From sequence record PP449093.1: 64,000 nucleotides of DNA; one strand, written 5' to 3'. Positions within the stretch are counted from its first letter, which is position 1, and every line of letters begins with the position of its first letter. The position numbers and the translations under genes are program-made. The stretch comes from Escherichia coli phage phiS. Shown here piece after piece: positions 9,536-12,642 of this stretch. A model generated the notes under the pieces. It made no database searches, had not been told where the DNA came from, and saw nothing but the letters and a program-made list of their open reading frames with translations.

Positions 9536-10910
9536 TCATTGTTAGACCTTCACGCGGCCTATATTCTTCGATGCCGTTTGCACCGTCATATATTACCACG
9601 GGCGCGTATTCTTCCCCCAATTCATCTAATTCCTTTCGGAATATTTCGGAGGCGATCCGCATTTCGTCTTTTCCTGCATATTCGGCGAATTTTTCTTGAG
9701 TTGTCAACCAACCAAATATTACCAGACTCATGACCAAATCATCGTGAAAACCTTCTTCTGCCGCCCAGCTTACCCCCTTCTCGGAGAATGTGCGCAACTC
9801 CTGAATAGTTCCTTTATGATTAATGATCAGCTTATCTTTTTCTATTAAGTCTTTTAGTGCCGAACATCCCATTGCTTTAGATCTTTTGGATTGTTTCATC
9901 CCTAGATCTATGAATGAGTCGCAAATAATATTATCATATTCAAGATCCATCGCAAGAGACTTAGCAATAGATACACCCGTACTATTTAGCTCGATATAAA
10001 CCGGACATTCGTTATACATCATAAGATATTTAAAGACGATATCCGGTAATATTAAATGTGACGTAGTATTGCTGTGATATACCGCGACCTGTTTATAAGG
10101 AAATTCAGTAATATCAATGATTTGCATTGCGTGATAGTCTTGTCCTCGACCTTCTGAGCAATCTAGTGTAGCAACATATTTTCTACCTTCTTTCGGTTGT
10201 TCAAATTGATAAAAACCATTATCATTAACAACGTCAATAAATGATAATCTTGATAGTGTGGTTGCCCTGATCAGAGTACCGGAACTCCCGAAAAATTCAG
10301 CGTTATGTTCCTGTAAGAATTGCTCAAGACTAGATCCGGCGATCGCCTGAGATGACCACTCATAACCATCATCGAATATATCAGCTTTATTGTAAAGACG
10401 TTCTTTAACAGAATGCCAAACCGCCTCATAAGGTACATAACCGCTTTTACCATCAATGGCAGATTGCCAGATATCATAAAAGTGATTAAGCCCGTTCGGA
10501 GTCGTTGTCATGATCATTTTAGATTCACGACCAGAAGAAATTACTGGTTGGATTGCAAGGAAACAATCGGTCCAGTTTTGAATAAATGCGCAGTTATGGG
10601 ATTCTACATTGTTTGTAGTGTAATGGTTGCCATCTGCAACGTTAGTTAAATCGTATAAAAAGTCTTCACCAACATAATCTTTACTAATGACAGTAAGGCC
10701 GGAAGACGTAACGAATCCAGCCTCGATATCATCGGCTTCTATGAAAAAGCCGTCACTTGATTTTAATTTATGGTTTTCTGAACATTCAAGATATGATCCG
10801 TCGCTAAATGTTAGTTTCCAGATCATACCAAATGTTTCTTTTATGCCATCAAAATCTTTAAAACCGTTTTCGGTGAGAACTTCGAACCCGTCAAGATTCC
10901 AAAAGTTCAT
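9531..10910 (-). CDS. 17: terminase large subunit C-terminal fragment: intein C-part (106 aa) fused to gp17 C-extein (353 aa)
   Basis: Own start ATG at 10910 preceded by GAGGATTATATTA; residues 1-106 carry intein blocks B/F/G (SENHKL...[23 protein letters not shown]) and end in HN followed by Cys+1; the rest ([38 protein letters not shown]...) matches T4 gp17 after its EDC motif. Confidence 0.85.
10593..10910 (-). other. intein C-terminal fragment (IntC) within terminase C-fragment gene
   Basis: Hint-domain blocks B, F and G ending in His-Asn immediately before Cys+1 codon at 10592..10590. Confidence 0.7.
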
Positions 10911-12642
10911 TAATATAATCCTCGTGAATATATTCGAAAGTGTATCCGTTTTCTTTACACCATTCTATAGCGGCTTGTTCTTTCGCCATTGTTTTTGGAT
11001 CTTCAACAAGTCGCTTAGGCTTAACTTCATAAACGATCTTATTATCGTGATCTACGAAGTCCGTAATATAAACGTGATTCTTTCCTTTAAATTTGTATGT
11101 AACACGAAGCGTTTCGTATTCAATATTAACGCCTTTAGCCTTCATGTCTTTATAGAAAGCAAGTTCCCAAGAGCTACGGAAGCTATGACCATCATACTTA
11201 ATGCGGGAATGATTAAGTCGATTAGTCGTCTTAGGCGTAAATTCACCATTCAGAATACGCTGTTTAACTTGCTCTGACTGTTTAGCCCTTTGTTCTGGTG
11301 TTTTCTTACCGTTGCACTTTCTGCGCATTTCATCGCCGTTTTCGACGTATAGACGTTTCATTGCCTCGCCTTGTTTGGCGTAACCACATTTACGGCAAAG
11401 ATAACCCTCATTTTTAACAGCATACATCCCGCATTCTGGACACTCAAAACGCCGGAAGATAACCATTTTCGATGATATTTTCCCTAAGCGTCCAGGCAAT
11501 TTTTCTGTGCAGTAGTTATGACATTTATCCTTATAGTATGGACCATTCTTGCTTAATTCCACACGGCAACCACATCCTTTTGTAGAGCAAACAGGACGCT
11601 CCAGAATATCATTTGTCACACATGCGATAAACTCTCTCATGGATTCGGTTTTATGAAAATGCGTGTCGAAAAACTCTTTGTATTCTTCCAACATATCCAT
11701 AGTTACGCCAGGAACCCAACCGCGAGTCAAGTTTGGATTTTTTGCGTGTGGCAGTAATAACTCTTTAATTTTATTCAACTTTTGCTGAATAGCCATCATC
11801 TTAACCTCTAACATGGTGTATTCTTTAACTTCACCTGTTAGCTTATCACGCAATGTAACTTTGGTCAAGCCGCTAACGCATTCGTCAATGTAGATAAATG
11901 AGAACGAGTTACCGCGCACGGCATCAGGAGACGACGCATAAGCACCAATACTTGAACCGTTTTCAAGAACAATTGATTTCTTGTTCCATTCAACAATACC
12001 TGGCTGTAAGAAGTCTGGTAATAGTTCAATTGCTTGTTTAGTACGTTCTAGAACCTCAACTGCCATTGATCCTTTGTGTGCCAGTATACCTACCGCTTTG
12101 TCTTTATTAAAACAAACGTAGTGAGCAAGGAATATTGCTACAGCGGTAGTTTTCCCTAGCTGACGTGATAGTTTATGTGCGCTCATGCGGTTTTCATGCA
12201 TGATCTTAAGCATATCTTTCTGATAATCACGCAATTGTACTTTGATTGTACCGTAGTCGATGTGTGTAATTGCGCAATAGGTTTCTGCGAAATATACAAT
12301 ATCTTTACGGCATCGTTTCCACTCTGCGATCATTTCAGGGGTATACTGAGTTTTAATATTCGCCCTTCGCAAGTTCTTTAACCGCATATACCGCGTGCGA
12401 ATATTGTCACTATCTTTAAAGAACTTATAATTTGTTGGATCAGTGCTTTGCATCCTTATTTTCTGCGGTCTGTTTAATTTCAGATAGTCAGAAAACTTTT
12501 TAGGATACCATTTATCATCATGCTTTGATAAAATCCATTCAATACCATTTGAATCAATTTTAGTTTCTAGTGTAGACGGATGAGCTAAATATAGCGGGTG
12601 TTCATCCGTCGCCATTGCGTTAATCCCTTCAATCACGCTCAT
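10891..12642 (-). CDS. 17: terminase large subunit N-terminal fragment: gp17 N-extein (254 aa) fused to intein N-part and a zinc-finger/nuclease domain
   Basis: Residues 1-254 match T4 gp17 N-terminal ATPase (Walker A SRQLGKTT, Walker B IYIDE); Cys255 begins an intein block-A-like [10 protein letters not shown]; then multiple CxxC motifs and a C-terminal domain with an RSSWEL motif; stop at 10891. Confidence 0.85.
10894..11880 (-). mobile_element. intein N-terminal segment plus embedded/fused putative homing nuclease domain
   Basis: Begins at Cys codon 11880..11878 right after the Walker B glutamate; contains zinc-ribbon motifs and a C-terminal nuclease-like domain. Confidence 0.65.

Follow-up and report, generated by a model that had tools for sequence, protein, structure and literature searches.

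What does a nuclease that resembles the head completion nuclease gp4 do inside a large-terminase gene, and why is that gene divided into two overlapping open reading frames (ORFs)? These questions are raised by gene 17 (large terminase, TerL) of Escherichia coli phage phiS (PP449093.1), of which a stretch of 64,000 nucleotides, referred to below as the window, was analysed. A first-pass annotation of this stretch had noted the resemblance to gp4, and had put the nuclease forward as a possible homing enzyme of the gene-17 insertion. From the comparisons reported here, the best overall explanation is a homing endonuclease carried by a split intein within gene 17, to which we assign a probability of roughly 0.78.

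The insert in gene 17

Positions 9400-12800 of the window gave megablast matches to 66 phage records, nearly all from Krischvirus (RB49-like coliphages), the closest being Escherichia phage kaaroe with 96.9% identity, and judged by its sequence the window comes from a Krischvirus coliphage. Genes 16, 17 and 18 follow one another on the minus strand, and gene 17 consists of two overlapping ORFs on that strand, ORF1 (12642..10891, 583 residues) and ORF2 (10910..9531, 459 residues). RB49 gp17, on the other hand, is a single protein of 607 residues that aligns with residues 1-254 of ORF1 and 107-459 of ORF2. A DNA alignment of nine sequences gave an insert of 1288 nt in the window, which by the intein convention spans 11880..10593 and follows the Walker-B Asp-Glu without a gap, with ...FIYIDE on one side and CAFIQNW... 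on the other. The N-extein (ORF1 1-254; 11881..12642, minus strand) ends with the Walker-B sequence ...FIYIDE, corresponds residue for residue to RB49 gp17 1-254 and matched Pfam Terminase_6N (1.7e-25). The C-extein (ORF2 107-459; 9531..10592, minus strand) runs from CAFIQNW... to the stop codon, aligns with RB49 gp17 255-607 and matched the C-terminal part of Terminase_6N together with Terminase_6C.

By sequence the insert can be assigned to the atypically split inteins of the AceL/GOS-TerL type. Its N-terminal piece (IntN; 11803..11880, minus strand) has 26 residues and begins with Cys1 (C255) exactly where the insert starts relative to the intein-less RB49, Phi1, PHB13 and GEC-3S; the same IntN was found in HY03, PspYZU05, phiR1-RT, Thanatos-2 and L004. 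The C-terminal piece (IntC; 10593..10910, minus strand) has 106 residues, and the hallmark residues of an intein are all present, i.e. the nucleophile C255, CSENH in block B, and ...VESHN|C107 with the latter cysteine as Cys+1. When compared with the PDB by phmmer, residues 5-107, ending HN|C, matched 6DSL_B, 'Consensus engineered intein CatC', with E=2.4e-13. CatC represents the consensus of AceL-TerL and GOS-TerL. These are split inteins that occur naturally in myovirus terminases and have an IntN of 25-37 and an IntC of ~104 residues, and their trans-splicing has been observed in vitro (PMC11766414). Also in line with this family, the split falls after block A and the IntN of ~26 residues is block A alone. 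A 40-residue query with IntN gave no match in the PDB because it was too short, and the Pfam intein models did not detect the window intein. The first report of a gp17 locus with a break at this unusual position came from Dassa et al. in 2009 (PMC2677866).

In the window IntN does not end after block A but runs on in frame, through a Cys-containing linker of ~105 residues, to a Zn ribbon with a helical segment and then to the nuclease core, and an endonuclease of ~300 residues (two Cys4 modules plus a PD-(D/E)xK core) is thus joined in frame to IntN. The nuclease had been described as intein-linked. The linkage holds, but the intein is atypically split and the nuclease is fused to its 26-residue N-terminal piece alone.

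Start of ORF2

The stop codon of ORF1 (10891..10893, minus strand) lies 17 nt inside ORF2, and the two-ORF layout recurs with equal ORF lengths in kaaroe, JK32, SAP and TB34. A Shine-Dalgarno sequence for ORF2, GAGGA (10919..10923, minus strand), is embedded in the His-Glu-Asp codons of the nuclease, 8 nt before the ATG at 10910. Both GAGGA and ATG were invariant in all six lineages aligned, with a distance of 7-8 nt between them. The overlap of ORF1 and ORF2, which are in different frames, is 20 nt in the window versus 13 nt in HY03, so that the relative frame varies. Since the Shine-Dalgarno sequence and the ATG are kept while overlap and relative frame differ among lineages, the pattern fits translational re-initiation of ORF2 rather than frameshifting.

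No late promoter (TATAAATA) was found inside the insert. Independent expression of the endonuclease from an internal start was also considered. A GAGG-N5-ATG sequence precedes M281 of ORF1, but the Met codons at this position are missing in L004 and Thanatos-2, and this candidate was rejected as not conserved.

The nuclease and its upstream modules

The nuclease core (ORF1 462-583; 10894..11259, minus strand) contains the motifs GEFTP, RSSWE, ITDF and YEVKP. It had been placed at 10894-11260, a range that gave the domain correctly but was one base too long for the frame, whereas 10894-11259 translates cleanly. The core matched Pfam PF08722 (TnsA-like endonuclease N) with 35.5 bits (E=1.6e-8; curated cut-off 26.5 bits) and passed marginally for PF05367 (T7 endonuclease I) with 29.6 bits (E=6e-7; cut-off 29.1 bits), and the match to phrog_15427, 'endonuclease', reached 8.6e-41. 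T7 endonuclease I (1m0d, E=6.5e-4) was the only solved relative found by sequence. Its residues E20, D55, E65 and K67 align with the predicted catalytic Glu E493 in RSSWE (11166..11164), Asp D528 in ITDF (11061..11059) and ExK residues E539 and K541 in YEVKP (11028..11026 and 11022..11020), all on the minus strand. The set corresponds to what the clade requires, with Glu on helix 1, Asp on strand 2 and ExK on strand 3. The catalytic E, D and E were invariant in 15 family members, and K was replaced by R in S16 and PM2.

The AlphaFold2 (AF2) model of the nuclease module had a pLDDT of 78, with values above 90 in the core, and showed the element order H-E-E-E-E-H-E-H. The best PDB matches of the model in Foldseek were to TnsA (1t0f/1f1z, probability 1.00), followed by the homing endonuclease I-Bth0305I (3r3p, E=5.6e-3), and model and matches agree with the alpha-beta-beta-beta-alpha-beta arrangement of a restriction-endonuclease-like fold. 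From sequence and model, the core is assigned to the PD-(D/E)xK enzymes of the TnsA-N/T7-endonuclease-I clade. On the other hand, no similarity to Vsr or I-Bth0305I was found by sequence or profile at E<=10, and the His of DFVDHD is not conserved in the nuclease family, the motif being E...D...ExK and not EDxHD. Hef homologues near phoH have been mentioned in a Campylobacter phage paper (PMC3322345), and Hef belongs to the Vsr-like/EDxHD family (Taylor et al. 2011, PMC3239194). An identity of the present family with the Hef of phage U5 was rejected indirectly, from this description together with the absence of a Vsr or I-Bth0305I match here.

Two putative Zn modules, each with four cysteines, lie upstream of the core. 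The linker domain (ORF1 281-388; 11479..11802, minus strand) carries the Cys4 cluster C352, C357, C374 and C378, gave no match in Pfam or PHROG, and was found only in the fused layout, where linker and cluster are kept in the window, L004, Thanatos-2, P0042 and P0045. The Zn ribbon C401-x2-C404 ... C416-x2-C419 (11386..11442, minus strand) is invariant in the fused forms, is also present in free-standing homologues of 199 residues, and matched Pfam Zn_ribbon_3 weakly (E=0.071). Four or more CxxC zinc-ribbon motifs had been claimed for this region. There are only two literal ones, C401-PE-C404 and C416-RK-C419, in addition to the four-Cys cluster of other spacing.

Kinship with gp4

The gp4 homologue of the window is an ORF of 161 residues on the plus strand (33713..34198), which matched PF08722 with 73.6 bits (2e-20) and phrog_218, 'head closure', with 7.2e-59, and is 87% identical to the 'head completion protein [Shigella phage JK32]'. 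As called, the ORF opens with GTG (VLKMGG..., 33713-33722), and as the homologues have 157-158 residues the real start is probably an ATG three codons downstream.

The peptides quoted in the first-pass annotation were recovered from both proteins, the gp4 homologue reading ...ITYRSSWELHIFKWLD...YYMDIYVKF...LWEIKPAKE, and the last ~122 residues of ORF1 do share RSSWE, the catalytic Asp and E-[VI]-K-P with it, identically ordered. A translation of the window in all six frames gave RSSWE in no other place. The pairwise alignment was significant by BLASTP (E=1e-4; 23% identity over 124 columns), and a Smith-Waterman score of 68 compared with 31.8 +/- 5.5 for 2000 shuffles, none of which scored that high (z=6.6). 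At the level of profiles, the nuclease domain matched phrog_218 with 3.4e-11 and gp4 matched phrog_15427 with 3.3e-4, each of these PHROG families being the best non-self family of the other. When an alignment of 15 nuclease-family sequences was compared by hhalign with one of 19 gp4 sequences, a probability of 99.0-99.1% was obtained (E=4.4e-18; 108-117 columns, covering gp4 end to end). The match extended beyond the catalytic motifs to nGEFTP versus kGkYkP before the core, to IPY, and to a C-terminal helix-strand K..AA..WC..G..F.IITE.

The predicted folds were likewise compatible. The AF2 model of gp4 (pLDDT 90.9), compared with the same PDB library, also had TnsA (1t0f/1f1z) as its top match, and the order of secondary-structure elements was the same in both models. 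The proposal of a common nuclease fold thus turned out to be an understatement, since hhalign, the models and the presence of the four T7-endonuclease-I catalytic positions point to true homology. In line with this, gp4 had been predicted to be a TnsA/T7-EndoI-like PD-(D/E)xK nuclease already in 2005 (PMC1189080), and a passage of PMC7824862, citing Benler 2020, describes it in the same way. The domain is nevertheless best classed as a gp4 homologue and not as a member of the gp4 family, with 3.4e-11 on phrog_218 versus 8.6e-41 on phrog_15427, and as the C-terminal domain of an ORF of 583 residues. By these comparisons gp4, an essential protein of T4-like phages, is the nearest characterised relative of the intein nuclease, and the likeness reflects common ancestry of a nuclease module, not a shared role.

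Distribution of the nuclease family

Only about 6 of the 66 Krischvirus-like records carry the 1288-nt insert, which is lacking in RB49, Phi1 and others. A tblastn search with the last 195 residues of ORF1 found the nuclease family inside gene 17 also in Tequatrovirus (HY03, JEP6, PD112, SG1 and others), in Jiangsuvirus PspYZU05, in Tegunavirus (phiR1-RT, TG1), in Shewanella phage Thanatos-2 and in the metagenomic phage L004. Two layouts were observed. In HY03, PspYZU05 and phiR1-RT there are three ORFs, which overlap rather than being spaced: TerL-N plus IntN, stopping ~41 residues after Cys1, then a free-standing endonuclease of 199 residues, and then IntC plus TerL-C. In the window, Thanatos-2 and L004 there are two, with the nuclease fused to IntN. 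The insert is therefore sporadic and occupies a conserved position in an essential gene, and the same site is used in four other lineages of Straboviridae, as is typical of homing endonucleases.

More distant members, of ~290-300 residues, were found in other host genes. In Salmonella phage S16 (L009 1640-4366) and Proteus phage PM2 (L010 1634-4366) the nuclease lies between the halves of uvsW, which carry a canonical split intein (MNDE|CFDGDT...TGNH; ...AHN|C). The pieces in S16, PM2, L018 and L019 are UvsW-N with an IntN of ~92 residues, a nuclease of 291-297 residues, and an IntC of 36 residues with UvsW-C, and the arrangement recurs in P0085 and others as well as in metagenomic contigs. 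The three ORFs of this fractured uvsW bear only the labels 'DNA helicase / hypothetical protein / DNA helicase'. In Campylobacter phage CP21 (L011 1005-3867) intein pieces and a broken nuclease copy divide phoH after VDE|C. The C-terminal half of this copy, CP21_059, has been taken for gp4, since RefSeq labels it 'head closure'. The sites in the three host genes share a position directly after the Walker-B 'DE' with Cys+1 (TerL IYIDE|CAF, in the window at 11881-11886 / 10590-10592, UvsW MNDE|CHL, PhoH VDE|C), which may reflect a shared target preference or the usual bias of inteins for ATPase active sites.

An exhaustive profile search yielded 3,652 representative clusters (50% identity clusters, E<=1e-3). 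For 611 of these the E-value was 1e-30 or lower, and most members have ~300 residues. Relatives of the nuclease carry NUMOD3, a DNA-binding motif of homing endonucleases. The long members are fusions of TerL-N or UvsW-N with Hint, NUMOD3 and TnsA-like domains that end at the nuclease C-terminus, and a layout with IntN fused and IntC separate is therefore recurrent. Two further members were observed in other surroundings. P0006, of 401 residues (L021 935-4247), lies between a Terminase_6N ORF of 218 residues and a Terminase_6C ORF, possibly at another split site of TerL, and P0009, of 484 residues (L020 501-2874), extends into the beginning of a clamp-loader gene that is gp44-like.

Selection, mobility and the proposed homing cycle

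Among five Krischvirus alleles, the nuclease core had 22 variable codons with synonymous changes only versus 6 with amino-acid changes, with intact catalytic motifs, and the linker had 11 versus 4. The codon counts indicate that the nuclease is under purifying selection. In HY03, PspYZU05 and phiR1-RT intein and nuclease were 81-93% alike versus 73-75% for the C-exteins, and horizontal spread is suggested by this excess.

The comparative evidence, namely the sporadic insert, the same site in other lineages, the uvsW and phoH inteins and the intact ORF, speaks for the earlier suggestion that the nuclease is the homing enzyme of the gene-17 insertion, and most likely it spreads the intein between phages. 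Starting from the anatomy, intein family, nuclease fold, catalytic residues, gp4 homology, ribosome-binding site, multi-gene distribution and selection established above, we infer trans-splicing, site-specific cleavage and homing in the window phage, as follows. ORF1 would be translated as TerL(1-254)-IntN(26 residues)-endonuclease(~300 residues), and ORF2 (IntC-TerL 255-607) would be made by re-initiation at the GAGGA-ATG within the last codons of the endonuclease. IntN would then dock with IntC, and trans-splicing would join the terminase halves to a normal gp17 of 607 residues and set free an IntN-endonuclease polypeptide of 329 residues as well as IntC. An intact TerL is expected because five or six isolates are viable with an essential gene split, and because activity has been published for the AceL, GOS and Cat-TerL inteins. 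In a mixed infection the endonuclease would cut an intein-less gene 17 near ...ATTGATGAA^TGCGCATTT... (ATTGATGAA^TGCGCA), the corresponding target in the insert-less gene 17 of RB49 being ...TTTATCTACATTGATGAA^TGCGCATTTATTCAAAAC..., after which the whole insert would be copied into the cut gene by recombinational repair.

Several observations weigh against this explanation. A comparison among lineages with the fused layout gave a conservation of only 55% for the nuclease versus 78% for the exteins, so that a long vertical descent in these lineages, possibly with homing activity lost, is also compatible with the sequences. The flanks show almost no signature of co-conversion. Over ~3 kb of flanking DNA the five insert-bearing and four insert-less alleles had a single fixed difference, a silent GAT>GAC at 11884, which lies 4 nt away from the junction and affects the codon for Asp253, and co-conversion tracts were discarded as uninformative evidence for homing. 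Furthermore, the AF2 confidence is low over the Zn modules, no DNA-binding domain was recognised by Pfam in the window copy, and packaging might conceivably have co-opted a nuclease that is attached to a piece of the terminase.

Alternative explanations

This co-option would mean that the nuclease is no longer, or never was, selfish, and has been domesticated to aid the terminase or head completion, e.g. by gp4-like processing of DNA ends. Its nearest characterised relative is after all a nuclease of packaging and morphogenesis, it forms one chain with a TerL fragment, purifying selection acts on it, and in the fused lineages it looks old. Moreover, a nuclease adjacent to a terminase can cooperate with it, the HNH protein of HK97 being an example (PMC10448857). 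Nevertheless, we regard domestication as unlikely. The insert is dispensable for most Krischvirus phages (60 of 66 records lack it), the genome retains a normal gp4, the nuclease would be separated from gp17 after splicing, and the same family occurs in uvsW, in phoH and beside clamp-loader genes, which are unrelated to packaging. Convergence on the catalytic motifs of the huge PD-(D/E)xK superfamily, without any specific relationship to gp4, would be in keeping with the low pairwise identity, with the recurrence of the shared catalytic residues across the superfamily, and with the modest Foldseek E-values to TnsA (1e-4 to 1e-3). It becomes very improbable in view of the hhalign result with its non-catalytic features and of the reciprocal relation of the two PHROG families, and even half of a broken family member was taken for a head closure protein.

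The homing endonuclease on a split intein also has to be set against a reading in which the division into two ORFs is an artefact or a sign of gene decay, i.e. a contiguous intein with a nested endonuclease that appears frameshifted through a sequencing error or as a pseudogene, or one subject to programmed frameshifting. The overlap of 20 nt in different frames could be taken in this way, and so was apparently done for G2494, whose GenBank record reads 'similar to large terminase', i.e. the gene was treated as a pseudogene. However, five to six independent Krischvirus isolates carry the identical two-ORF layout, with equal ORF lengths and overlap in viable, independently sequenced phages from Denmark, Ireland, Germany and elsewhere, and on this basis, together with the conserved junction, a frameshift or sequencing error at that point was rejected. 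A break after the nuclease is common to four other lineages, in which GAGGA-N7/8-ATG is invariant although the relative frame differs, trans-splicing has been demonstrated for the natural split inteins to whose family IntC belongs, and TerL is essential. The probability left for an artefact or decay as a whole is minimal.

Relation to known systems

Split-intein 'fractured genes' and PD-(D/E)xK homing endonucleases are both known kinds, and we rate the locus as a variant and not as a categorically new system; the domain assignment alone is ordinary, because Pfam already gives it. The closest counterparts on the intein side are AceL-TerL, GOS-TerL and Cat-TerL (PDB 6DSL), with which the window intein shares a myovirus TerL host, a short block-A IntN, an IntC of ~105 residues with blocks B, F and G, and the Cys1/HN/Cys+1 residues. 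Those inteins are metagenomic and have a free IntN of 25-37 residues, whereas the IntN of the window continues into the ~300-residue endonuclease and its host is a cultured E. coli phage. The 'fractured genes' of Dassa et al. include one gp17 locus broken after motif N1, but their endonucleases are GIY-YIG or Vsr-like (EDxHD) only, and are parted from IntN by a stop codon and 27-51 nt (PMC2677866). The three-ORF version of such a gene is seen in HY03, PspYZU05 and phiR1-RT. The window has a canonical PD-(D/E)xK nuclease of the TnsA/T7-endonuclease-I kind, in frame with IntN and without stop or spacer between them, and its gene 17 is thus not a fractured gene in that sense. In the literature searched we found no TnsA-like endonuclease described in inteins, although the primary AceL/GOS-TerL papers might mention an intervening ORF.

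On the nuclease side, the T4 gp4 family (phrog_218; PF08722) of T4-like phages shares the restriction-endonuclease-like fold, the E/D/ExK set, an N-terminal G-x-[FY]-x-P and the C-terminal helix-strand. It differs as a stand-alone core gene of ~150-160 residues beside genes 53 and 2, with a helical insertion of ~25 residues after ExKP, while the intein nuclease has upstream Zn-finger modules, is part of a mobile insert and is sporadic in distribution. T7 endonuclease I (PF05367; 1m0d/1fzr), a Holliday-junction resolvase, is the closest solved structure by sequence, and the N-domain of TnsA (1f1z/1t0f), a transposase subunit, the closest by fold; both lack N-terminal Zn-finger modules and an association with inteins. 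I-Ssp6803I is a small tetrameric intron-encoded enzyme. Like the PD-(D/E)xK enzyme I-Ssp6803I and the EDxHD/Vsr-like I-Bth0305I (3r3p), the intein nuclease would be a homing endonuclease on a restriction-endonuclease fold, but neither enzyme matched it at the sequence level, and E...D...ExK is not EDxHD. Enzymes of the I-Bth0305I type are also found in fractured genes and carry NUMOD modules (PMC3239194).

Tentatively, and at somewhat less than even odds, we suggest that a large family of gp4/TnsA/T7-endonuclease-I-like homing endonucleases colonises Walker-B 'DE|Cys' inteins of TerL, UvsW and PhoH, often in a 'half-integrated' state, i.e. fused to IntN and parted from IntC by its own stop codon and a built-in ribosome-binding site, with gp4 as a domesticated sister or the source. 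If so, this type of homing endonuclease would be new to the lists of intein and 'fractured gene' endonucleases in the literature searched, and the IntN-fused layout would be an intermediate between split inteins whose endonuclease is free-standing and inteins in which it is fully nested, a step postulated by Dassa et al. (PMC2677866). The labelling-tool inteins AceL, GOS and Cat would also gain natural counterparts in tractable E. coli phages (kaaroe, JK32, HY03 and the window), which would open intein biology, including the question why the split follows block A, to study in vivo. New site-specific nucleases might be drawn from this family, which is modular, with Zn-finger or NUMOD modules added to the canonical PD-(D/E)xK core, and plentiful in metagenomes. 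The kinship with gp4 also raises the question whether selfish nucleases and essential ones have been exchanged in T4-like phages.

Other observations at the locus

In practical terms, annotations of such loci are inconsistent, with labels ranging from 'hypothetical protein' and pseudogene to 'head closure' for a nuclease fragment. Among public records of this locus, G2494 (L015) enters the split gene 17 in full as a misc_feature, kaaroe (L001) labels ORF1 'hypothetical protein', and SAP (L016) labels ORF2 'Hypothetical protein'. A different intein was observed in other Krischvirus phages, Escherichia phage ELT3 (L017 432-3248) and AV108, where a contiguous LAGLIDADG intein of 331 residues occupies the P-loop of gp17 (SRQLGK|ALDVNTP...IPTHN|TTAVAIF). 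The gp17 of the window is without this P-loop intein, and the metagenomic protein P0042 combines a version of it of 222 residues with the Walker-B split intein and the nuclease.

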